A stretch of DNA of 64,000 nt, taken from contig OY762069.1 in the NCBI GenBank assembly GCA_963665095.1, positions 5,856,001 to 5,920,000 of the forward strand. Direction: 5' to 3'. This stretch comes from an uncultured Desulfobacter sp. (GTDB lineage: Bacteria; Desulfobacterota; Desulfobacteria; Desulfobacterales; Desulfobacteraceae). Positions 492-15,960 of the stretch are shown one piece after another (the stretch's first letter is position 1; each line of letters opens with the position of its first letter). The position numbers and the translations under genes are program-made. The notes below the pieces were generated by a model. That model saw only the letters and a program-made list of their open reading frames with translations, was not told the DNA's origin and did not search any database.

Positions 492-971
492 ATGGAAGTA
501 CTGCCAAAGAGATTTCGCAGCTATGATCTGTCACTTCACCCGACAAAAACAGTGATCCTGCCATTTGGTAAACCGTGTGTTTTCCTACGTAAAGATAAAA
601 GAAATGGAACGTTTGACTGTCTTGGATTCACATTCTATTGGGCCAGATCTCTAAAAGGGTACTGGATCATAAAGAAGAAAGCGTCAGGAAAGCGGGTGAA
701 CCGGTTTATGAAAATGTTGTGGCAGTGGGCTCGTGCCCATCGACATGACCCGACATGGGACCAGTATTTGACTTTAAGCAGCAAGCTTCGCGGGTTTTAT
801 CAGTACTATGGTGTAAGAACCAACTACAAAGCACTGGAAGCAGTGTTTGAATATGCGCAGAAAGCCTGGCGTTACTGGCTGAGCAAAAGAAGCCAGAGAA
901 GTAATGTGCGGATGGCGGACTTAATTGGTAAGTATCCCCTGCCAAAACCAAGGATCGTACACAATATATAA
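492..971 (+). pseudogene. Group II intron reverse transcriptase/maturase, C-terminal fragment
   Basis: LSLHPTKT, FDCLGFTF and LRGFYQYY motifs (RT7 and maturase X domain). No YADD region upstream and no domain V/VI after the stop. Confidence 0.85.
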
Positions 972-1315: not shown

Positions 1316-2881
1316 ATGAAAAAAATAGGCTTATTCTTGGTAGCGGGAAACGTGCTGGGGGGATGTTCCACTTTTTTATATTTTAAATTCTTTCTGCCAT
1401 CAATCCAAAACAATCCAGCCATCCCAGGATATTATGATACAACGTTTTTTCTGGCTAGTATGGCCGTGTTGATCCTACTGGGGTTTTGCATTTTTAAGAG
1501 CAAATCGGGCAAAACCCTGTATGCGGTTGCACAAGGTCGGCGGGACATTTCTGAGTTTGATCCATCAGTAGTTCACCATCTTCAGCGAGAGGCTCTTCAA
1601 TATCCATTTGTCATTACGGTGATCTCTTTTCTGGGATGGAATCTGGCCGGTTTTACTTTCGGGTTTCTGCAACCCGTGATCACAGCAAAGATATTTAATC
1701 TGACCACACCGGGTCTGGTGATCTGCCTGAGGGAATTCTTAGGAATTATTCTTCTTGGCGGAGGGGTGACCTGCCTGGTCCTTTTTTTTGTTCTGGAGGA
1801 TGCCTGGCGTCCTTATATCCCCAAATTTTTTCCCCAGGGCAATTTAAACCAGGTCAAGCATGGGTTTAAAATCAGCGTTAGAAAAAGGTTTCTATTGGTT
1901 GCCCTGGGAATTATATTGATTCCACTTCCCATTATTGCCACCACCATTGTTATAAAAATTCAACAGCTTCACCTGGCCGATACGGCTGCCCGGAACGAGT
2001 TGATTTCTTCCCTTTATTGGGAGTTGTTTTTTATCTCCATAGATTCACTGACCATCGCATCGGTTTTGGCCTATCTCTTGGCAAAAAGTGTCTTAACTCC
2101 CCTGCTTCAGATAAAAAAGGCCATTAAAGTCGTTGAGCAGAATAACCTGGATTCCCAGATTAAAATCATGTCTAATGATGAGCTGGGGGATGTGGCCCAG
2201 GGGATAAATGATATGATTCTAAGCCTAAATGAAAGCCAGCGGGAAAGGAACTCCTTTAGCCGATACATGGGGGAGGAAATCCGTGATGAAATCATGTCCG
2301 GAAGAATCTCCATGGAGGGCGAGATGAAGAGGGTGACACTGCTTTTTTCCGATCTGAGGAATTTTACGGGGCTTGTGGAAAAAAATCATCCCCGACAGGT
2401 GGTAAAAATTTTAAATCAGTATTTTAATGAAATGACTCTGGCCGTTAAAGCACACAAGGGACTTATCCTTCAATATGTAGGAGATGAGATCGAGGCTGTT
2501 TTCGGGGCACCCGTGGGTTTTGAAGATCATCCGGAAATGGCGGTACAAGCGGCCCTGGAAATGAGAGAACGGCTGGCAAAATTAAACATGACTCTTGAAA
2601 AACAAGGGGTTGCTCCCCTGGAACACGGGATAGGTATCCATTCAGGAGCGGTGCTTGCCGGCAATATCGGTAGCCAGGAGAGAATGTCCTATGGCCTAGT
2701 CGGAGATACGGTGAATACCGCATCCCGCATTGAAGGACTGGCCAAAACATATGAGACGGACATCCTCCTGAGCCAAACCACTCAGAACTTGTTAACCAAC
2801 TCCTATGTCACCAAACAGTTGGATCCGGTCAAAGTAAAGGGAAAGGATGAAGGATTGATCATTTATAAGCTATTGTCCTGA
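1316..2881 (+). CDS. Membrane-bound class III adenylate/guanylate cyclase with HAMP domain
   Basis: Several TM helices, HAMP (DELGDVAQGINDM), LFSDLRNFT, YVGDEI, GIGIHSG, GDTVNTASRIE. Confidence 0.93.
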   Translation: MKKIGLFLVAGNVLGGCSTFLYFKFFLPSIQNNPAIPGYYDTTFFLASMAVLILLGFCIFKSKSGKTLYAVAQGRRDISEFDPSVVHHLQREALQYPFVITVISFLGWNLAGFTFGFLQPVITAKIFNLTTPGLVICLREFLGIILLGGGVTCLVLFFVLEDAWRPYIPKFFPQGNLNQVKHGFKISVRKRFLLVALGIILIPLPIIATTIVIKIQQLHLADTAARNELISSLYWELFFISIDSLTIASVLAYLLAKSVLTPLLQIKKAIKVVEQNNLDSQIKIMSNDELGDVAQGINDMILSLNESQRERNSFSRYMGEEIRDEIMSGRISMEGEMKRVTLLFSDLRNFTGLVEKNHPRQVVKILNQYFNEMTLAVKAHKGLILQYVGDEIEAVFGAPVGFEDHPEMAVQAALEMRERLAKLNMTLEKQGVAPLEHGIGIHSGAVLAGNIGSQERMSYGLVGDTVNTASRIEGLAKTYETDILLSQTTQNLLTNSYVTKQLDPVKVKGKDEGLIIYKLLS

Positions 2882-3057
2882 TTTCATATTTTTTGTCCTG
2901 CCTTCATCTATCTATTTCACCATTGATATATAATAATCAGCACATTCATTTCCAGGTAAGAAACCTTTGATCCAATATGTAACTTGGAGGGCAGGATGAC
3001 AACAGAGAGCATTGAGCAATCAGCATTTTCCGAAAAACTTGAGAATTTGAAGCCGGT
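2877..3057 (+). repeat. ~180 bp direct repeat copy of the araC-GRE intergenic region plus GRE 5' end
   Basis: Near-identical to 5262..5442, including RBS GGAGGG and ATGACAACAGAGAGCATTGAGCAATCAGC. Confidence 0.95.
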
Positions 3058-3122
3058 GCAGCCCTGTGGCTGAAATCGGGAGGAGAGATCGCATCGTGTC
3101 TTCCCAAGACAAAGGCCGCCAT

Positions 3123-4201
3123 ATGAATATCCTGTTGCTCTACCCCAAGTTTCCCCCAAGTTCTGGTCCTTTGAAAAGACCATCGCCCTGAGGGGGAAAA
3201 AAGCCTTCATGCCCCCCTTGGGTCTGATCACCATTGCCGCCATGCTGCCCAAGGACTGGGCGGTCACCCAGGTGGACCGGAATATCAGGGAAGTCTCAAC
3301 GGAGGAGTGGGCCCGGGCCGATCTGGTCATGATCTCGGGGATGATTGCCCAGAGAGCGGATTTCACGGCACAGATCAAGGCAGCCAAGGCGTTTGGAAAG
3401 CCGGTGTTCGTCGGCGGTCCCTATGTCTCCTCTTCCCCGGAACGCTTTGAGGCGGCCGGTGCCGACTTCATTGTCAGGGACGAAGGAGAACTCACGATCC
3501 CCCTCCTGGTCCGGGCCCTCAGGCAGGGGCAAACCTCGGGACACTTCAGCGCGGACGGCGAAAAGCCGGACATGTCTCTGGCCCCGCTGCCCCGCTACGA
3601 CCTTCTGGACATGGATACCTATTCGGTCATGCCGGTCCAGTTCTCCAGAGGCTGCCCCTTCAATTGCGAGTTGTGAGATATTATCGTGCTCTACGGCCGG
3701 AAGGTCAGGACCAAATCCAACGCCCAGGTCCTGCCCGGCACCGCCCTTGAGAAACGCCTCCTGGCGGAAGGACGGATGTCGGACCGGTCCGGGGACATCA
3801 GTTATACCACCCTGACCAACTTTACGCCCTCCCGCCTGGTGGATGAAATCGCCAGGGAATTCATGGACGGTTTCTGGATGCTATACGACCCTGCCGCCTA
3901 CATCGACAGGGTATACCGCTGCTACAAAATTTTAGGAAAGGTGAAGTTCCCGCCGAAAAACCGTGAGCACCATAAAATCAAAGCCCAGGATATCAAAGCC
4001 ATGTTCATCCTCCTGTGGCACCTGGGCATCCGGTCCCCCTGCAGGAAGAAATTCTGGACGCGCCTTTTCGGCGTCCTTAAGGAAAATCCGGACGGGCTGG
4101 TCAGTTTTTTAAGTGTCCTGGCCCAGCTGGAACACTTCACGGCGTACCGACAGACCGTCAGGGATCAGATTCAGGCCCAGCTTTCCGGAATGACATCCTG
4201 A
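3123..4201 (+). pseudogene. B12-binding radical SAM protein (DUF4070-type C-terminus), disrupted
   Basis: MNILLLYPKFP start, early frameshift, PPLGLITIAAMLP, SRGCPFNCE followed by TGA where the third Cys should be, then a jump from KSNAQV to LPGTAL (internal deletion). Confidence 0.88.
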
Positions 4202-4228: not shown

Positions 4229-5272
4229 CTAATACTCTTTTCGACTGGCTTTTTCCCGGTAGTCTCTTGTCGTCATCCCTGTCCACTTTCTAAAAGCCGC
4301 TCTGAAGTTCGTGACTTCTGAAAAACCAATTCGATCTGCTATCTGTTCAATTGTAAGGGCGGTGTTTTCAATGTAGTGTTTTGCATATTCAGCCCGTGTC
4401 TCGTCAAGAACCTTCTGGAAGCTCGTATCCTGCTCCTTTAATTTCCGCCGCAGGGTCCTGCCGCTAACGCCGATTTGTCTGGCAACGTCCTCCAGTCTCC
4501 TATCCCTGAACGAAGAAGAAGTCACGATTGTCCGAATAGATTCAATGAGTTCATCCCTTCTTCCCCATTTATCCGCCAATTCCTCGCACCGCTGCATGCA
4601 AACCTCGGCCATCTGATCATGGCTCATTGATATGCGGATATTAAGCAGTTCTATGGGGAAAGAAACAGAATCAATGGTGCGGTCATAATATACCGGACAT
4701 TCGAACATTTCCCGGTACAGACGGCTGTATCCGGGTTTAGGATAGGAGAGATGGATTTCTGTCAAAGGAAGTTTGCCGCCGACAAGAAAACAGGTTGAAC
4801 TGTACCAGGTGGACAGCATTTCCTCTACAGCATATTTCCAAAGGAGCGGTTCTTTATACGGGTATGGCGGCAGGATTTCCCAGATTTGAATATCGCCCTC
4901 AGATTTTCGGATAATGTCTACCAGGCTTCCTGACACCTTCCAATACTGGACCGCAACATCCGCAGCTTCCTTGAGGGTATGGCTGCACATGATGGCATAC
5001 CCCCAAAAACCCAGTCCCGTTAAATTCTGTTCCCTGCCGATTCTGAGTCCAAGGGCCTCATCGGAGCTGAGAGTCAACCCGTTCTTTACGATTTTCAAGT
5101 AATCGGCAGGGGTGATAACGGCATCGGGGTTATGCAGCCATTTTTTGTCCAGGCGGACGCCGAGCAGTATTTTTTCTAGCGGAATTCCCCTCCTCGCCAG
5201 AGTTTTCACCAGCCACTGTGCCGCAGCGGCCGGGACAAATTTTTCCGATGCATGATTTTGGCCTGATTTCAT
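4229..5272 (-). CDS. AraC-family transcriptional regulator (OruR-like long N-domain)
   Basis: C-terminal double HTH (LEDVARQIGVSGRTLRRKL..IADRIGFSEVTNFRAAFRKWTG). Divergent from the GRE. Confidence 0.93.
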   Translation of the reverse strand: MKSGQNHASEKFVPAAAAQWLVKTLARRGIPLEKILLGVRLDKKWLHNPDAVITPADYLKIVKNGLTLSSDEALGLRIGREQNLTGLGFWGYAIMCSHTLKEAADVAVQYWKVSGSLVDIIRKSEGDIQIWEILPPYPYKEPLLWKYAVEEMLSTWYSSTCFLVGGKLPLTEIHLSYPKPGYSRLYREMFECPVYYDRTIDSVSFPIELLNIRISMSHDQMAEVCMQRCEELADKWGRRDELIESIRTIVTSSSFRDRRLEDVARQIGVSGRTLRRKLKEQDTSFQKVLDETRAEYAKHYIENTALTIEQIADRIGFSEVTNFRAAFRKWTGMTTRDYREKASRKEY

Positions 5273-5380
5273 ATCTTTTGTCCGGTCTTCATCTATCTAT
5301 TTCCCCATTGATATATAATAATCAGCACATTCATTTCCAGGTAAAAAACCTTTGATCCAATATTTAACTTGGAGGGCATA

Positions 5381-8300
5381 ATGACAACAGAGAGCATTGA
5401 GCAATCAGCATTTTCCGAAAAACTTGAGAATTTGAAGCCGGTCCGAAAGATGACGACTTTCGACCGCCTTGTGGGATATCCCCAAATGGCATCAGGCATT
5501 TCCCGGTATGTTTTCGGAAAAGTGCTTGGAAATGTGCAATGGCTATTGCTGGGTTTTCTTCGTTTTGTTGCTGCCAAATACAACTCCAGTGCGGTACTTC
5601 AAAAAGAACTAATGGGAACCCGGGGCTGGATTAATGCCGATGTCGTTTTTAAATCCATGGACGGCAACGTGGCGGTTGGCGTCCTGATTAAAGATGGAAC
5701 GATGGTAATTCAGGATTCGATATCGACCACTGCCGATGCAACATTCTGTTTTCAAACGGCCAATTGCATCATGAACTACCTCAACGCCGGCAAAAACCAA
5801 GCCAATGCCATGATGCTGGAAGGTCGGATGTGGATTCATGGCAATATGACCCTGGGCTATTATTTCTTTTACCTGCTAAATGTTGTCCTTTTAAAGGAGG
5901 AGTTTAAATCCCAGAAGCAGGCAATTGATGAAAATCGCAGTCTGGCCAGAAAAGCCGCGAAAGGGGTGTCGACGTGTGGAAGAGCTGAAAAGAAGAAACG
6001 GCGTTCCCAGCGGTTGAAAGCAGAGAAGAGAGACCCCGGCGTTAAATGGCTGAAGAATCCCTATCTGGAGGAATACGGTCTGGAGGATTTTCCACGGGTC
6101 GAAACATTTCGCGAGGAGTTGTTTCACACCAGAACAGAGTTGACGGCTGAGTACGGAAAGCTGTTGACCGATTTCTTTATTGAGAACGGATATGAAACTA
6201 AAAAATCAGGCGAAGAATGGGAGCCCAATCTGCGTAGAGCAGAAAGTTTCCATTACCTGATGTCTAACCGGCAGGCCCTGATTCGGAAAAACGATTTGCT
6301 GGCGGGAACCTATACCCCGAATCCGGTTTCCGGAACCGTAACCCACCCTCATACAATGGGCCATTTGATGTGGCCGGAGCTGAAAACAATAGACAAACGG
6401 GAACTCAGACCTCACCAGATAAGCGAGGAGACTGCGTGGGTCATGCACCACCACGTCCTGCCCTTCTGGGCGGACAGGAATTTGCTGCAATGGTGGAAAA
6501 AGGATTTCAACAACTCATTGCCGGCACAGATCCAGGACCGCTGGTTTGCGATCTTCTTCTGGAAATTCGTGTCTCAAAGCGAAATCAGTCCAGGATATGA
6601 CAATTTTATCCTCAAGGGCCTGAAAGGGATGGAAGCTACGATTGATGCTGAACTTAAAAACGATCCCAATGCCGATGAGGAGAAGGTCAACACCCTTAAC
6701 GCCATGAAAATCGGTCTGGATGCCGCGAGGGCCTATGCCCGCAACCTGGCACAGCAGGCTCGAAAAGAAGCGGCAACCGAATCGCATCCACAACGCAGGG
6801 TCGAACTGGAAGAGATGGCGGAAAGGCTTGAACATGTCCCTGAATATCCGGCTCGAACTTTGATTGAGGCTGTTCAAACCCTCTGGATTATGCATATTTG
6901 CCTGGGACTGGAAAACATGGACGACGGTCCCATGCTGGGAAGGCTCGATCAAATTCTGCAACCGTTCTTTGAGGCCGAGATGGAGCTGTTGAAAACGGAA
7001 AGCGAGAGGGAAGCCTATGTAAAAGATGTTATCGAGATTATGGGATGCCTCTTTTTCAGACTGGCCAGTCACTTGATTGCATCTCCGGAAATCGGAGAAT
7101 GGCAAAACTCAGGAGCCCCGCCGAACACGACCATTACGGTAGGGGGTGTTAAAAAGGACGGAACCGACGCCGTGAATGATATGTCCTATATCATCCTCAA
7201 GGTAATCGAAATGCTGGCCTTGCAGGACCCGAATTGTCATGCCCGTTATAAAATCGGTGTCAACAGCCGTGATTTTTTGAAGCGGGTTTGCGAAGTGAAC
7301 TACACCACCGGTGCAACACCCTGTATTCACAGTGATGAGGCCATGATCACTGCCTTGAGTGCTAACGCAAACTGGGCGTTGGAGGATATCCGCGGCTGGA
7401 CTCCCACCGGGTGTGTTGAGCCTTCCCTCCCGGGAAAGCACTGCTCTGCAACATCCTCACTGGAGGTCAACCTGATGGCGCCGTTTGAGATGGCGATGAA
7501 CAACGGGTATCATCCGCTGGTGAACTGGCGCCTTGGCCCGGAAACAGGGCGGATCGACAAAGGCGATTTCAGGTCCTTCGAGGATTTCTGGGCGGCCTTT
7601 GACAAACAGAGCTGTTTCATCATCGAGCAATCCGTTATCGGCAATAACGAGTTGGGGATCATCCACCAGAAACACATGCCGGCGCCTTTGCTGTCGGCTT
7701 CGATCAAGGGGTGTATAAAAACCGGCAGGGGGATGACCCGAGGGGGTGCGAAGTACAATTCCACCGGTGTTGCAATTATTGGGCTGGCAGACGTGGTGGA
7801 TTCCCTGATGGCCATCAGGACCTTGGTTTTTGATAAAAAGATCGTGACCTTCTCGGAGTTGAAGCAGGCAATCGATAGCAATTATGAAGGATTTGAAAAG
7901 ATTCATGCATTGGTGAAAAACAAGGTTTCCCGCTTCGGTTCCGGAAATCCAGAGGCAGTGGCCATGGCAAATCGGGTCACAAAAATGTGCAACGATTATT
8001 ACAGGAATCACAGAAACTACCGAGGTGGCCATTATGCAACCGGATGGTGGACCATGAATAATCATTCGGTTTACGGCAGGGTTTCCAGCGCCTCGCCTTC
8101 CGGCAGGCTCAAGGGAGAGCCTTTTACCCCGGGTTTAACACCCCATGCGAGTGCATCGAACAATATTCTGGACAATCTGCTGGATGTGGCCCAATTGGAT
8201 CCCACAACCCTGGACAATAATATCGCTTTTAACGTGCGAGTCGTCCCCTCGGCAAAAGACGCCTATGATCAGACGGTCAGCCGGATGGCGGATTACGTCC

Positions 8301-8494
8301 AGACCTACTTTGAAAAAGGGGGGATGCAGATCCAGTACAATGTGGTGGATACGGACACCCTGAAGGACGCCATGGCCAATCCGGAGCACTATGCTGATCT
8401 CCTTGTCAGGATTTCGGGTTACTGCGGCTATTTTGTCCAGTTGCAGCGCGACCTTCAGCTGGAGCTGATCCGTCGTAGCGAGTTTGGATTATAG
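5381..8494 (+). CDS. Glycyl radical enzyme (PFL2/dehydratase-eliminase type) with SCP2-like N-terminal extension
   Basis: Cys loop GCVEP, Gly loop LVRISGY, GGMQIQYNVVD; ~1037 aa; RBS GGAGGG before ATG 5381. Confidence 0.93.
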   Translation: MTTESIEQSAFSEKLENLKPVRKMTTFDRLVGYPQMASGISRYVFGKVLGNVQWLLLGFLRFVAAKYNSSAVLQKELMGTRGWINADVVFKSMDGNVAVGVLIKDGTMVIQDSISTTADATFCFQTANCIMNYLNAGKNQANAMMLEGRMWIHGNMTLGYYFFYLLNVVLLKEEFKSQKQAIDENRSLARKAAKGVSTCGRAEKKKRRSQRLKAEKRDPGVKWLKNPYLEEYGLEDFPRVETFREELFHTRTELTAEYGKLLTDFFIENGYETKKSGEEWEPNLRRAESFHYLMSNRQALIRKNDLLAGTYTPNPVSGTVTHPHTMGHLMWPELKTIDKRELRPHQISEETAWVMHHHVLPFWADRNLLQWWKKDFNNSLPAQIQDRWFAIFFWKFVSQSEISPGYDNFILKGLKGMEATIDAELKNDPNADEEKVNTLNAMKIGLDAARAYARNLAQQARKEAATESHPQRRVELEEMAERLEHVPEYPARTLIEAVQTLWIMHICLGLENMDDGPMLGRLDQILQPFFEAEMELLKTESEREAYVKDVIEIMGCLFFRLASHLIASPEIGEWQNSGAPPNTTITVGGVKKDGTDAVNDMSYIILKVIEMLALQDPNCHARYKIGVNSRDFLKRVCEVNYTTGATPCIHSDEAMITALSANANWALEDIRGWTPTGCVEPSLPGKHCSATSSLEVNLMAPFEMAMNNGYHPLVNWRLGPETGRIDKGDFRSFEDFWAAFDKQSCFIIEQSVIGNNELGIIHQKHMPAPLLSASIKGCIKTGRGMTRGGAKYNSTGVAIIGLADVVDSLMAIRTLVFDKKIVTFSELKQAIDSNYEGFEKIHALVKNKVSRFGSGNPEAVAMANRVTKMCNDYYRNHRNYRGGHYATGWWTMNNHSVYGRVSSASPSGRLKGEPFTPGLTPHASASNNILDNLLDVAQLDPTTLDNNIAFNVRVVPSAKDAYDQTVSRMADYVQTYFEKGGMQIQYNVVDTDTLKDAMANPEHYADLLVRISGYCGYFVQLQRDLQLELIRRSEFGL

Positions 8495-8498
8495 ACCG

Positions 8499-9422
8499 AT
8501 GAAGCGTCCCCTCATCATCGATATCAAAGGGCACAGCCTGGACGACGGGCCCGGGATTCGGTCGGTCGTCTTTATCAAGGGCTGCCCTCTGCGCTGCAGC
8601 TGGTGCCAGAACCCGGAGAGTCAAAGGACCACGGCAGAATTGTCCTGGGATCGGGAGAAATGCATCGGATGCGGCTCATGTGCACAAATCTGCCCGGAAC
8701 AGGCCATATCCGGGAACAATCCGTTTTTTATCGATCGGAAGGCCTGTTCCCTTTGCTTCGCCTGCGTGGAAACCTGCCCTGCCGACGCCTTGAGAGAGGT
8801 GGGAAAGGCAATGACCGTGGATGAAATTGTGGCAAAAGTGCTGCGCTACAGATCCTTTTTTGACACTTCGGGAGGCGGTGTCACCCTTTCCGGCGGAGAG
8901 CCGATCATGTTTATGGAATTTGCCGCCGCCCTCCTGAGGCGATTCAAGGAAGAGGGGCTGCACACTTTGCTTGAAACCTGCGGCCATTTTGACAGGGACA
9001 GCTTTGAAAACTTGATCTTTCCGTGGATCGATACCATCTACATGGACATCAAAATTGCGGACCGAAAAAAACATCAAGACCACTGCGGCATTTCCAACGA
9101 TTTGATATTGGAAAATTTTACATGGCTCTGTGGGCAAGCCGCCTCTGGAAAAGTGACGTTTCTACCACGAACGCCATTGATACCGGGGATTACGGACAGC
9201 GATGCCCAAATTGCGGAACTCGTCGGTCTTTACACCAGACACGGGGTTCAAAAGGCTTGCCTGCTGGGAAACAATCCGATCTGGATCGATAAATGTGACC
9301 AACTCGGCATTCCTGCCAAGCCGGGGCCTCTATCCAAGCTAAGAGAGTTTTACAGTTCGAAAAACTATGAAGCAATTCGATCGCTGTTCAAAAGAAACGG
9401 AATAACAATGGTTTCTTCCTGA
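8499..9422 (+). CDS. Glycyl-radical enzyme activating enzyme (radical SAM with ferredoxin insert)
   Basis: DGPGIRSVVFIKGCPLRCSWCQNPE, two CxxCxxCxxxCP motifs, GVTLSGGEP. Confidence 0.96.
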   Translation: MKRPLIIDIKGHSLDDGPGIRSVVFIKGCPLRCSWCQNPESQRTTAELSWDREKCIGCGSCAQICPEQAISGNNPFFIDRKACSLCFACVETCPADALREVGKAMTVDEIVAKVLRYRSFFDTSGGGVTLSGGEPIMFMEFAAALLRRFKEEGLHTLLETCGHFDRDSFENLIFPWIDTIYMDIKIADRKKHQDHCGISNDLILENFTWLCGQAASGKVTFLPRTPLIPGITDSDAQIAELVGLYTRHGVQKACLLGNNPIWIDKCDQLGIPAKPGPLSKLREFYSSKNYEAIRSLFKRNGITMVSS

Positions 9423-9458
9423 AGGACAGTCAAATCATGAAGGTGAAGAGGAGGCATC

Positions 9459-10847
9459 ATGATCACCCAAAGCCAGATCCACCACATCGTCGAGAACCAG
9501 CGCGCCTTTTTCAACGCCCATGCCACCCTGGGCCATGAGTTCAGGCTCAACGCCCTGAAAACCCTAAAGGATGGCGTTTGCCGCCATGAGCAACGCTTTC
9601 ATGACGCCCTCAAGGCCGATCTGGGCAAACCGGTCTATGAGTCCTTTATCACGGAAACCGGAATCATCCGCCATGACCTGACCCGAACCATGAAGTCCCT
9701 GAAGAAATGGATGGGCGTTAAATGGAAGATGACCCCCTTTTACCTTTTGCCCGGGATCAGCAAGGTACGCTACACCCCCCTGGGCGTAAACCTGATCATC
9801 GCGCCGTTCAACTATCCTATGCAGAGCACCTTTTCCCCGCTCATCGCAGCCATTGCCGCCGGCAACACCGCCGTGATCAAGACGTCGGAACTTACCCCCA
9901 ACGTGAGCCGGGTGATCCAGAATCTCATCGGCGACTGCTTCAGGCCCGAGCATGTGGCCTATGTGCCCGGTGAGGTGCCGGAAACCCAGATGCTCCTGAC
10001 CCAGAAATTCGACCATATCTTTTTTACGGGCTCCACCCGGGTGGGGGGAATTGTCCTTGAGGCCGCGGCCAGGCACCTGACGCCCGTGACCCTGGAACTG
10101 GGCGGCAAAAGCCCCTGCATCCTCCACAACGACGCCAACCTGGATACGGCGGTGCGGCGCATTGCCTACGGGAAGTTCCTCAATACGGGCCAGACCTGTG
10201 TGGCCCCGGATTATGTCCTGGTCCACCAGGATGCGGCGCAGCCCTTTATCGACAAGCTCAGGAAACGGATCCGAACCCTTTACGGAGACAACCCGTCCCA
10301 GAGCCCGGACTTCGGCCGCATCGTGAATGTGGCCCACCACCGCCGCCTGGTCTCCCTCATTGACCCGGAAAAGGTGGTCATCGGTGGGGACCATGACGAA
10401 GCATCCCTATACATCGGTCCCACGGTCATGACCAACGTGAGCCTGGATGATCCGGTGATGAAGGAGGAAATTTTCGGCCCGGTTCTGCCGGTGATGACCT
10501 TCCGAACCCTGGATCAGATCTACCAGACCATCGGGGCCCTGCCCCAGCATCCCCTGGCCCTCTACGTGTTCACCGAGAACCGGCAGATCCGGGATGAACT
10601 GGTCTCGCTGATCCCCTTTGGCGGGGGCTGCGTCAACCACTGCATCCAGCACCTGGCCAACCCCTACCTGCCCTTTGGCGGCCAGGGCGGCTCAGGCATG
10701 GGACATTACCACGGCTTTGACGGGTTCACGCAGTTTTCCCACAAAAAGGCCCTGTACCAGGCCCCCACCGCCTCCTGGCTGGACCTTCCCCTGATCTACC
10801 CGCCCTACAAGGGCAAACTCAAAATCATGAAGGCCATCTTCAGATAG
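9459..10847 (+). CDS. NAD(P)-dependent aldehyde dehydrogenase, class 3 (ALDH3/YwdH-like)
   Basis: IAPFNYP, FFTGS, LELGGKSP, GQTCVAPDY, EEIFGP, LPFGG..SGMGHYHG. Confidence 0.93.
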   Translation: MITQSQIHHIVENQRAFFNAHATLGHEFRLNALKTLKDGVCRHEQRFHDALKADLGKPVYESFITETGIIRHDLTRTMKSLKKWMGVKWKMTPFYLLPGISKVRYTPLGVNLIIAPFNYPMQSTFSPLIAAIAAGNTAVIKTSELTPNVSRVIQNLIGDCFRPEHVAYVPGEVPETQMLLTQKFDHIFFTGSTRVGGIVLEAAARHLTPVTLELGGKSPCILHNDANLDTAVRRIAYGKFLNTGQTCVAPDYVLVHQDAAQPFIDKLRKRIRTLYGDNPSQSPDFGRIVNVAHHRRLVSLIDPEKVVIGGDHDEASLYIGPTVMTNVSLDDPVMKEEIFGPVLPVMTFRTLDQIYQTIGALPQHPLALYVFTENRQIRDELVSLIPFGGGCVNHCIQHLANPYLPFGGQGGSGMGHYHGFDGFTQFSHKKALYQAPTASWLDLPLIYPPYKGKLKIMKAIFR

Positions 10848-11194: not shown

Positions 11195-11600
11195 TTAAAT
11201 GGAATCTTTCACGCGTCCTGAAGCAGGGCACCATCGATAAAGCGTGGGAATTGAAACACCCAGGTTGTTTGCAACTTCCTTTGGCGGCATACCTTCAGAC
11301 AGAAGCTTTTTGGCGGCTTCAACTTTGCTTGGAGTCATAAGGCGCTTTCTGCCGCCCACACGACCGCGTTTTTTTGCAGAAGCTAATCCAGCTTTCGTCC
11401 TTTCAATAAGAAGTTCCCGCTCCATTTCAGCGAGAGAGGCCATTACATGAAAAAAGAACCTGCCTGCGGGTGTTGTTGTATTAATGCCATCGGTGATGCT
11501 TTGAAAATGAATATCTTCATAATCAAATTTTCCAACCATGCTTATCAATTCTTTTAAATTGCGTCCCAACCTGTCGAGGTTCAAGATCACAAAGGTATCG
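11195..11600 (-). pseudogene. Serine resolvase/invertase, 5'-truncated
   Basis: LDRLGRN, TTTPAGRFFFHVMASLAEMERELLIERT and a C-terminal HTH. The catalytic YARVS N-terminus is missing. Confidence 0.88.
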
Positions 11601-11652
11601 TCCGTGCGTAAATGTGAGAGGGCATTATCAGAAAGGATCGTTTTCGATAACC

Positions 11653-12140
11653 ATGAAATCCCGAGTCTATTCTCATGAACAGATTGTGAATGTGGCCCGG
11701 CTCCAACCGGAAAATATCGAGCAGATCAGAAGGCGAAGGCGTACCCACAACCGGCTCGGTTTCGGTTACCAGCTTTGCTTCGTTAGGTTGACGAACCGGT
11801 TTCCCGTACAAAAACCTTTTGAAATTTATGAGGACATCCTCTCGTTTGCCAGTGTGCAACTGGATATTCCGGCCAGCGCCATTGACACTTACGCCGGCCG
11901 CCAGCCGACCATATCGGAACACCAGGAGCAGATACGAGAATATCTTGGGCTGCGGCGTTTTGATGAAAATGAAATCCCCGAAATCAGCAAATTTGTATTT
12001 GAAGAAGCATGCCGCCTGGAGCAGACAGTGGCCCTGCTTGCCGGCATTGGCCGCTATCTCAGAGAGCACACTATCCTGAAGCCTTCGGATGACACACTTC
12101 GCAGGCTGATTGCCAAGCAAAGGCGGAAAGCCAAAAAGCC
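11653..12140 (+). pseudogene. Tn3-family transposase N-terminal (DUF4158-like) fragment
   Basis: RRRRTHNRLGFGYQLCFVRL..RQPTISEHQEQIREYLG; cut off at the ankyrin gene. Confidence 0.85.
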
Positions 12141-12166
12141 TATAAGATCCTATCCCTATTTTTTAA

Positions 12167-13234
12167 TCATTCAAGAAGACGTATCAGTTTGCTATTTTTT
12201 ATCTTTTTTGCATAGTCCAGAGCCGTTAAATTTTGATTTGTGCGAAGCTCTTTATTGATACCGCTATCCAATAAAAATTCTGCAATTTCATAAGTTTGAT
12301 GAGCGACTGCAAAATGGAGAGCTGATTCTCCGGTTTCACTTACTTTATTTATATTTACACCTGCTTCAACTAGGATTTTAACAAGAGGAAAAGATTTTTT
12401 CTGGATAGCCATAGCTAAAGCGCTTGCCTTTCCGAATGTCAGGTTAGGGTCCGCACCATTAGCTAAAAAAAGCTGAACTTCAGGGATTCTTCTATTATAG
12501 ATTGCATAGTGAACAGCATTGTATCCTTTATCGTTAGCTTCATTCATATTGGCTTTATATCGCAAAAGGGATGAAATGATATTCAAATAATCACTTTTAG
12601 GAACATTTTTTCGTTTTTGCAAAACAGCCCATATTAGAGAGGAATTCCCATTTTCATCCTTGTGATTTGGATCAGCACCGTTTTTTAAAAGAACTTCAAC
12701 AACACCTGAGTTCCCGTATTTTGTTGCCAATAACAGAGGAGACCATATTTTTGATCTGCTTTTACTGTCAGCATCTACCAAGGCCCCTTTGTCAATAAGA
12801 AGCTGGGCAATTTCAGGCAAATCCATTTCCGTATGAAAAGCAAGTTGTTGAAGAGGTTTAAAAGCACCTGCCTGAATATTAACATCTGCCCCACGTTCAA
12901 TCAGGAAACGAACCATCTCCAGATCACCTTTATTAAAAGCATCCCTTAAAGGATATAGATGATATTTTTTTGATATACAATTTACATTTGCGCCATTATC
13001 AATCAAAAATTTTACCAATTCAACATTGCCGCTTTCCACAGCATCGCGGAGAAGGCAATCCTCATTAATATTAAAATTCGGGTCCTGGGATAGAAACTCT
13101 TTAACTTTGCTTAGATCCCCATTGGACGCAGCCTTGTAGATATCATTCTGATATTTTTCAGCCAATGCTGCGCCGCCGCTAAACAAGATCATCAAAAAAA
13201 CAGCCCATATAGAAATTAGAAAGAATCTCTTCAC
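12167..13234 (-). CDS. Exported ankyrin-repeat protein
   Basis: Signal peptide (ALA-E) and many repeats (LIDNGANVN, LLKNGADPN, SALHFAV, TALDYA). Confidence 0.9.
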   Translation of the reverse strand: MKRFFLISIWAVFLMILFSGGAALAEKYQNDIYKAASNGDLSKVKEFLSQDPNFNINEDCLLRDAVESGNVELVKFLIDNGANVNCISKKYHLYPLRDAFNKGDLEMVRFLIERGADVNIQAGAFKPLQQLAFHTEMDLPEIAQLLIDKGALVDADSKSRSKIWSPLLLATKYGNSGVVEVLLKNGADPNHKDENGNSSLIWAVLQKRKNVPKSDYLNIISSLLRYKANMNEANDKGYNAVHYAIYNRRIPEVQLFLANGADPNLTFGKASALAMAIQKKSFPLVKILVEAGVNINKVSETGESALHFAVAHQTYEIAEFLLDSGINKELRTNQNLTALDYAKKIKNSKLIRLLE

Positions 13235-15477: not shown

Positions 15478-15960
15478 TTACCGAATCGGACCCATCTGGT
15501 TGAGCTTTTCAATAAAGGTATCTATTTCTGCCTGGAACAGGGTTTTGTCTCCGGCAGGAATTTGAACCAGGTGGATACGTTCGGGGTCAATATCCAGACT
15601 TTCAAAGGTCGCTGTCATTTTTGCCACCTGTTTTTTGCCTTTTCATTGCCTTCATCCTGGCATTCGCCATCCGGACAGCAGGCCACCAGGCCCCCCCCCA
15701 GGCACCGTTGATGAATGGGGTCATGAGAAGCTTGGAATCCAGGCGGCCGCCGCACATATTCACCAGGATCTCATAGTCCTTGTCATCGAGCTCCTCCTTT
15801 GAGGTGCCGAAGGTCTTGGGAATCACAGCCGCCTCAATGGGACAGACCTCCACACAGATGCCGCAGGACTGGCACTTCACCGGGTCTTGAAAAATAGCAG
15901 AATGGCCACACTGGCAACGCAGACTCCGGTTACCCAGGCGGCAAAGGGTTTGTCTGAATA
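15478..15960 (-). pseudogene. Ferredoxin + MvhD-type hydrogenase iron-sulfur subunit fragment (frameshifted)
   Basis: CQSCGICVEVCP, MCGGRLD, then in another frame ACCPDGEC..LDIDPERIHL..FIEKLNQMGPIR*. Confidence 0.75.

Follow-up and report, generated by a model that had tools for sequence, protein, structure and literature searches.

An SCP2-fused glycyl radical enzyme from an uncultured Desulfobacter belongs to an uncharacterized clade that may act on amphipathic substrates

We analyzed a 64,000-nt stretch of DNA (the window) from the 6.9-Mb single-contig genome of an uncultured Desulfobacter sp., focusing on the locus at 4229-10847. At its center lies a gene for a glycyl radical enzyme (GRE) that carries an additional N-terminal domain of the SCP2 fold. 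Genes for an activase and a class-3-like aldehyde dehydrogenase (ALDH) follow on the same strand, separated by gaps of 4 nt and 36 nt, and a gene for an AraC-family regulator diverges from the GRE gene (Table 1). None of the four genes contains an internal stop codon, and the operon carries no microcompartment genes. This layout matches an original prediction made from the DNA alone, which had described four intact genes, a single-Cys GCVEP loop and an RISGY motif. For the start of the GRE gene, the open reading frame (ORF) finder picked TTG 5369; a GGAGG sequence stands ahead of ATG 5381, the start used here. The protein has the signs of the GRE superfamily, with matches to PF02901 (495 bits) and PF01228 (79 bits), a structural model that matches GRE structures, and an adjacent activase that scores above its model cut-off. 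As predicted, the ALDH resembles class 3, and its best PDB matches include both class 3 and fatty aldehyde dehydrogenases. The top NCBIfam models for the regulator are QhpR, CypR and GliR, each below its cut-off. The host genome encodes seven GRE-like proteins and has twenty-six acyl-CoA dehydrogenase matches.

Table 1. Features of the locus and of its surroundings in the window (GC3, GC content at third codon positions; ALDH, aldehyde dehydrogenase).
Feature	Position	Strand	Basis or remark
AraC-family regulator (PF12625 and HTH_18), 347 aa, putative sensor	5272-4229	-	ORF list, Pfam
Divergent intergenic region, putative shared promoter	5273-5380		GGAGG ahead of the GRE ATG; inside the 185-nt duplication
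Glycyl radical enzyme, 1037 aa, SCP2-fused, subtype A	5381-8494	+	ATG 5381 to TAG 8494
SCP2-fold domain, GRE residues 50-175	5528-5905	+	Profile, model and structure matches
Cys loop GCVEP, single Cys678 and Glu680 (CxE)	7409-7423	+	
Gly loop RISGY, Gly1013	8408-8422	+	
GRE activase, radical SAM with ferredoxin insertion, 307 aa	8499-9422	+	TIGR02494, 274 bits against a cut-off of 174
Class-3-like ALDH, 462 aa	9459-10847	+	Pfam, PDB matches, GC3
Direct repeat (185 nt, 95% identical) of 5258-5442	2873-3057	+	Ahead of the broken B12 radical SAM gene
Mobile-element remnant: possible reverse-transcriptase/maturase fragment	492-971		No Pfam match
Mobile-element remnant: truncated resolvase	11195-11590		
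Mobile-element remnant: DUF4158 transposase-type fragment	11614-12258		

The Pfam match for the PFL-like (pyruvate formate-lyase-like) region opens at GRE residue 243, leaving an N-terminal extension of about 235 aa; an extension had been predicted, at a shorter length of about 200 residues. No SCP2 domain was detected when the full-length GRE was compared with Pfam, and the isolated N-terminal piece matched PF02036 with E-values of 0.012-0.058 (14-16 bits, under the gathering score of 21.3). Across the family, 36 of 67 members matched PF02036 at E ≤ 0.05, the best at 5.4e-6. When a family profile was searched against the PDB, the top three chains were all SCP2, with weak E-values (0.07-0.08). 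Structural comparisons agreed. Residues 50-175 were modeled with a predicted local distance difference test score (pLDDT) of 91, and the ten best rows in VIA-align were all SCP2 folds (Z 11.7-7.6), including human SCP2 (Z 11.7, root-mean-square deviation (rmsd) 2.6 Å across 111 residues). The best Foldseek matches of this model were likewise SCP2 proteins or SCP2-bearing enzymes, so the SCP2-like character proposed for the N-terminal domain is borne out at the level of the fold. The full-length model reached a pLDDT of 92.7 and a predicted template modeling score (pTM) of 0.92 over 1037 residues; from this pTM we infer a fixed placement, and the model suggests that the SCP2 domain sits at a defined position on the GRE barrel. 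A search of the ESM Atlas with the GRE N-terminus returned only leads below 0.9. We also considered a membrane-binding amphipathic helix at the N-terminus and ruled it out, as the hydrophobic moments of residues 1-86 stayed within the 90th percentile of those in the core.

The SCP2 domain accompanies this group of GREs in three architectures, namely an N-terminal fusion, a C-terminal fusion and a separate gene. In the first set of loci, the N-terminal domain is present in 78 of the 84 aligned GRE ORFs (the alignment leaves out L007, L009, L019 and L066), and the remaining six start at the edge of a contig. Over 100 fused homologues were found, and in 10 of 119 further homologues the SCP2 domain lies at the C-terminus. 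The SCP2 profile also finds free proteins of 140-170 aa whose genes lie between those of a shorter GRE and its activase, and hhalign (99.7%) shows the free domains to be homologous to the fused ones. To avoid circularity, we repeated the search with an unfused GRE alone as query and obtained thirty-nine matches, thirty of them with loci. At these thirty loci, every unfused GRE (19/19) is followed within 1.5 kb by a stand-alone SCP2 gene, and every long GRE (11/11) has an N-terminal SCP2 domain, one of them frameshifted. Eight of the nineteen unfused GREs share 93-100% identity with the query, and seven of these come from a single genus, so the eight are not independent.

Two side observations concern the arrangement of these genes. 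Split loci of GRE, SCP2 and activase (L169-L174) recur alongside DUF6765, a metallophosphoesterase and a protein family that has no name, often as two copies; for the protein recurring beside the split loci, the ESM Atlas returned unnamed clusters only. At three other loci (L027, L029, L035), two SCP2-fused GRE paralogues stand in tandem and share one activase.

We constructed a phylogeny with FastTree from 171 sequences and 795 columns, after dereplicating 268 sequences at 80 per cent and excluding ORFs shorter than 700 aa; the reference GREs were taken from annotated plasmid records. The fused and unfused SCP2-linked GREs form one clade (support 0.916), and HypD, CutC, glycerol dehydratase (GD), 1,2-propanediol dehydratase (PD), PflD and YbiW all fall outside it. 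The sister of the clade is a GRE from a Moraxella plasmid without a nearby SCP2 match. The window GRE reaches no NCBIfam catalytic-subunit cut-off of any characterized GRE, and solved GREs are 20-29% identical to it in structural alignments (about 30% at most overall). Thus, by cut-offs and by its own clade, it does not cluster with a characterized small-molecule GRE, the outcome that would have spoken against the original prediction. Among the 120 homologues listed, 105 are 38-99% identical to the window GRE, one is 37% identical, and the remainder are at or below 31%. GRE matches at E ≤ 1e-150 occur in ten of forty-one related genomes, and matches to the SCP2 profile in 44 of 401 genomes of the host phylum; one homologue is labeled Patescibacteria at its source. 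Neither the clade nor a pairing of a GRE with SCP2 or a sterol carrier is described in the main-text literature searched, which took in only a minority of subscription journals; for the pairing, the only match was a fungal paper of no relevance. The accessible text of a 2026 GRE review (PMC13450708) does not contain the words ‘SCP’ or ‘sterol’.

Cys678, Glu680 and Gly1013 are invariant in all 86 aligned family members. The Cys loop reads C678-V-E680 and has the CxE form expected of 1,2-eliminases and isomerases. In the available sections of the review, this loop is common to all six characterized C-O eliminases, CutC, the C-S lyases and the isomerases (PMC13450708, sections 5.6 and 5.7), and the substrates of the characterized eliminases and isomerases are small and polar. 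We mapped the rest of the active site by sequence alignment at about 30 per cent identity and found at least four signatures within the clade. The window GRE belongs to subtype A, with Glu401 at the position of GD His164 (an active-site residue in the same review text, PMC13450708), where CutC has Asp and HpyG/HpzG have Glu. Subtype A also has Asp514-Asp515 at the second GD His position, Asn582 replacing an aromatic residue, Thr691 (shared with CutC), Glu695, Trp890 and Met892. The pocket predicted for this subtype combines acidic and aromatic residues (E401, D514, D515, E680, E695, W394, W574, W890), without the His residues that diol dehydratases have. His401 is retained in subtype C and in the unfused forms, and position 890 is Arg in subtype B (subtype B loci: L011, L013, L015, L016, L022, L023, L026, L028, L033, L034, L043).

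For gene neighborhoods we used 133 loci, in which GRE ORFs of at least 700 aa form ninety clusters, fifty-three of them flanked by 3 kb or more on each side. Neighbor labels were assigned from one or a few of the scanned members of each cluster, and the counts have no control set. Within 5 kb, an activase is found in sixty-two of the ninety clusters, TetR in twenty-six, a short-chain dehydrogenase/reductase (SDR) in eleven, an AMP-binding protein in six, acyl-CoA dehydrogenase, aldehyde:ferredoxin oxidoreductase and sulfatase in four each, and enoyl-CoA hydratase in three. An ALDH of any class lies within this distance in only two clusters (2/90, or 2/53 with flanks of at least 3 kb), and BLAST found an orthologue of the window ALDH (95% identity) only in L001, the other ALDHs being 26-32% identical. 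The predicted conservation of the ALDH linkage therefore does not hold. AraC fared little better, being confined to the nearest relatives and one unrelated case (3/90), and TetR is the commoner regulator.

The nearest relatives bear on how the locus was assembled. The AraC gene is present in L001-L004. L001, also from an uncultured Desulfobacter, is the nearest named relative, with 94 per cent protein identity and the same gene order as the window. L002, labeled Desulfarculus, is 90 per cent identical in DNA over 4236-9429; the match ends right after the activase, and the locus is flanked by repeated ORFs resembling insertion sequences. In genome G306, the window ALDH found no orthologue (best match 38%). 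In addition, GC3 is 0.80 for the ALDH gene and 0.53-0.61 for the AraC, GRE and activase genes (GRE 0.59), against a 95th percentile of 0.67 for the genome. Together, the L002 breakpoint, G306 and the GC3 values point to a mobile unit of AraC, GRE and activase, which the ALDH probably joined later, in one lineage; loss of the ALDH from the other lineages seems less likely than this gain. Against the MdlD model the ALDH scored 413 bits, under the cut-off of 550. That an aldehyde would be oxidized straight to a fatty acid is plausible in this strain alone.

The neighbors of subtype C, the largest of the subtypes, lean toward lipid or aldehyde metabolism: in its sixty-four clusters we counted SDR in eleven, AMP-binding proteins in six, acyl-CoA dehydrogenase and aldehyde:ferredoxin oxidoreductase in four each, and enoyl-CoA hydratase in three (again with no control). 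We considered whether the SDR might be a 3-ketodihydrosphingosine reductase (KDSR/TSC10); KDSR is absent among the PDB, NCBIfam and plasmid matches listed for it. Beside one subgroup of subtype C (L148, L155-L157) stand genes for two zinc alcohol dehydrogenases, a split transketolase and an IclR regulator, a hint of a polyol substrate in that branch. A scan of contigs with the motifs of one protein returned seven loci.

The surroundings of the locus had been described as decayed. This is true of the B12-binding radical SAM/DUF4070 gene and of the resolvase and DUF4158 fragments, but the gene for adenylate cyclase (1316-2881) appears to be intact. The radical SAM gene (about 3120-4201) is frameshifted and lacks roughly residues 243-389 of the intact copy in L001; its GC3 (0.75-0.79) is close to that of the ALDH gene. 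Ahead of it, the 185-nt repeat duplicates the beginning of the AraC gene, the intergenic region and the initial codons of the GRE gene, and the L001 version extends to 290 nt. This repeat may place the radical SAM gene under the GRE regulator, or it may be a rearrangement scar. In L001, a 265-nt direct repeat (4546-4810 and 15493-15757) brackets the block from the cyclase to the ALDH; it is apparently the 3′ end of a response regulator and was not found in the genome of the window.

Two metatranscriptomes contain short, low-depth contigs of relatives that cover parts of all four genes; they show neither transcription nor co-transcription. One of these contigs has a loose end before 9427, near the L002 breakpoint, which is a weak hint at most. 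In two DNA runs (X6 and X8), parts of the AraC and GRE genes (4295-8956) are represented by a near-identical copy and also by a minor, divergent one (about 87-90% alike), and X6 additionally includes part of the activase gene.

We lean, by a little, toward a CxE-type 1,2-eliminase or isomerase that, assisted by SCP2, attacks an amphipathic substrate at its polar head. The activase would install the glycyl radical on Gly1013, and Cys678 would then take a hydrogen from the carbinol carbon. Glu680 would deprotonate the carbinol hydroxyl as the adjacent C-O or C-N bond breaks, yielding an aldehyde or ketone. The SCP2 module would bind or deliver the hydrophobic part, so that the polar head alone enters the barrel, a role modeled on UbiJ with its ubiquinone intermediates. 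AraC would induce the operon in response to the substrate, and the ALDH, as a probable recent addition in this lineage, may oxidize the aldehyde and pass the product to the acyl-CoA oxidation genes of the host. A hydrophobic or amphipathic substrate is our best inference, and it is better supported than in the original prediction because SCP2 accompanies the clade in each of the three arrangements. Of that earlier interpretation, the SCP2 fold and the distinctness from characterized GREs stand, and the conserved ALDH linkage does not. Given the acidic and aromatic pocket of subtype A and its lack of His, our first guess, which would take up about half of this reading, is an amino-alcohol head of the sphingoid-base or N-alkyl-ethanolamine type; a glycerol ether or long-chain diol is the second guess. 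In favor of an amine, E401 aligns with the acid of CutC and HpyG/HpzG, and over residues 365-740 amine-substrate GREs outscored diol dehydratases (129-156 against 107-117 bits). More tentatively, the clade could be a first lipid-acting class of GREs, in which the alkyl chain would be held by SCP2, as a fused domain or a free accessory subunit, during cleavage of the head group in the barrel. Subtype A would then act on sphingoid bases or other long-chain amino alcohols, subtype C on diols or glycerol ethers, and subtype B on anionic heads such as those of sulfonolipids. We regard this extension as possible, though doubtful.

Several observations count against our main reading. A shared SCP2 fold by itself proves no function, and our structure search also turned up SCP2-like domains in Eis-type acetyltransferases, where the domain is structural. 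One GRE inside the clade in our tree, P0107, has no detected fused SCP2. The active-site mapping depends on alignments at the identity stated above, and the score gap between amine-substrate GREs and diol dehydratases is modest. The neighbors of subtype A (opine dehydrogenase, amidinotransferase-like and betaine-aldehyde-dehydrogenase-like proteins, EamA/MFS transporters and formate-tetrahydrofolate ligase) lean toward amine metabolism rather than lipids, and the scarcity of ALDH genes around the clade belongs to the same list. Finally, a second GRE of the host scores over the HpfG cut-off (1117 against 1000 bits), yet has an SCP2-like gene upstream. According to the accessible text of PMC11489063, HpfG is a dehydratase of the small polar 2,3-dihydroxypropane-1-sulfonate (DHPS). 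This case cuts both ways because the model may include dehydratases that do not act on DHPS, and an SCP2-like gene is present at two of thirteen loci related to this GRE. At this locus (L095:8898-12555; G000:C1 about 6324900-6328550, minus strand), the second GRE gene is preceded by the SCP2-like gene, of 117 aa, and by a TetR gene that falls in the same cluster as the TetR beside subtype C.

In the strongest alternative, SCP2 plays a structural or gating part, functionally comparable to that of the small subunits in BSS, MASS and HPAD, and serves solubility, channel gating or control of activation; the substrate would be a small polar amine or diol, and its aldehyde would be handled by any host dehydrogenase. 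Section 4.2 of the review, in the text available, has those small subunits covering hydrophobic patches or gating a channel (PMC13450708). One SCP2 type serves at least four active-site signatures, which fits this role, as do the SCP2-like neighbor of the HpfG-scoring GRE and the amine-related genes beside subtype A. Nevertheless, the solved small-substrate eliminases start at query residue about 236-284 and have no SCP2-like domain, the lipid-type genes recur beside subtype C, and HPAD, BSS and MASS are the only enzymes for which the same review text mentions small subunits. On balance we consider a structural or gating SCP2 rather unlikely.

Other radical chemistry on a hydrophobic substrate, such as decarboxylation, hydroalkylation or a biosynthetic lipid modification, seems improbable to us. 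It would be in keeping with the identity of about 30 per cent or less to all characterized GREs, an active-site set unlike every reference, the B12 radical SAM gene behind a copy of the GRE promoter region, and the biosynthetic partners of SCP2 elsewhere (UbiJ/UbiT, in the part of 10.1101/587956 available). However, models and structures of decarboxylases and succinate synthases match clearly below those of eliminases, the ORF list has no Fe-binding small-subunit ORF (no Fe-S small-subunit gene) between the operon genes, and a CxE loop with an invariant Glu is an eliminase/isomerase signature. Equally hard to credit is the strict form of the original prediction, a conserved and dedicated lipid-to-fatty-acid pathway of AraC, GRE, activase and class-3 ALDH, which the close spacing of three intact genes on one strand, the gene order of L001 and the likeness of the ALDH to class-3 and fatty aldehyde dehydrogenases favor, but which already fails as a conserved unit given the two ALDH clusters in ninety, the match to L002 that stops at 9429, the G306 result and the divergent GC3 of the ALDH gene.

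Retention of an SCP2 partner throughout a large clade of anaerobic organisms makes for a concrete, testable enzyme class, and the adjacent ALDH is unsuitable for assigning the function of the GRE family. If the substrate is a lipid, these enzymes would open head groups, amino alcohols or ether bonds without O2 and could serve as biocatalysts for hydrophobic substrates; if the whole clade acts on lipids, it would provide an oxygen-free entry to the membrane lipids of sediments and digesters. The GRE accessory subunits covered in the available review text are iron proteins (PMC13450708), and SCP2 would be a new kind.

Comparison with known GREs places the eliminases closest. HypD (6VXC) and HpyG/HpzG (8ID1, 8IOF) are the best sequence matches of the window GRE (E 1e-105 to 3e-93); they share the barrel, the CxE motif, the Gly loop and an acid at 515 (HypD) or 401 (HpyG/HpzG), but are only about 26-30% identical, lie in a separate part of the tree and lack SCP2. 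HypD also has His at 401 instead of Glu, and its model (NF043068) gave 430 bits against a cut-off of 1100. CutC (5FAU, 9F3W) shares the CxE motif, Thr691 (present in 84/86 family members) and an acid at 401; it differs in its aromatic residues at 582 and 695, which are Asn and Glu here, and in model score (TIGR04394, 354 against 1050 bits), and the window GRE has a clade of its own, the extra SCP2 domain and an operon free of microcompartment genes. The best fold matches are glycerol and 1,2-propanediol dehydratases (1R8W, 5I2G, 9RCO), with target template modeling scores of 0.93-0.95, an rmsd of about 2 Å and the CxE motif in common. Their His, His, Asp and Tyr at 401, 515, 692 and 890 are Glu, Asp, Ser and Trp in the window GRE; we take positions 515, 692 and 890 to have diol-binding roles in GD and PD. 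The window GRE also falls under the diol-dehydratase models (TIGR01774, 433 against 678 bits; HpfG, 320 against 1000 bits).

More distant classes differ further. Among the C-S lyases (IslA, IseG, HpsG), which anchor a sulfonate through Arg/Gln, the HpsG model gave 343 against 1000 bits, and the window GRE has Trp at 890, presumably (judging from spacing) the position of the sulfonate-binding Arg678 of IslA. Pyruvate formate-lyase has a Cys-Cys loop, and the window GRE, with its single Cys, scored 120 against 994 bits with TIGR01255. The HPAD and IAD models gave 203 against 1150 and 255 against 1100 bits, the activase scored 201 against 496 bits with BssD, and the catalytic-subunit scores for BSS, MASS and HPAD are far lower than the eliminase scores. 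BSS, MASS and HPAD do share with the SCP2-linked clade a small partner protein beside the catalytic subunit, and the substrates of BSS and MASS are hydrophobic; their partners, as far as the available review text goes, are HiPIP- or rubredoxin-like iron proteins and not SCP2 (PMC13450708).

The other half of the comparison concerns the SCP2 modules of UbiJ/UbiT, the C-terminal domain of the alkylsulfatase SdsA1/YjcS, human SCP2 and the SCP-2L domain of MFE-2, all of which have their fold in common with the GRE N-terminal domain (Z 9.8-11.7 or Foldseek E ≤ 1e-3). UbiJ and UbiT are SCP2 proteins that, in the text available of 10.1101/587956, handle hydrophobic (ubiquinone) intermediates for partner enzymes. 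Like the N-terminal domain described here, the known modules are fused to an enzyme or adjoin one, as in the ubiT-ubiU fusion. They are 11-22% identical to it, and its partner is a glycyl radical enzyme.

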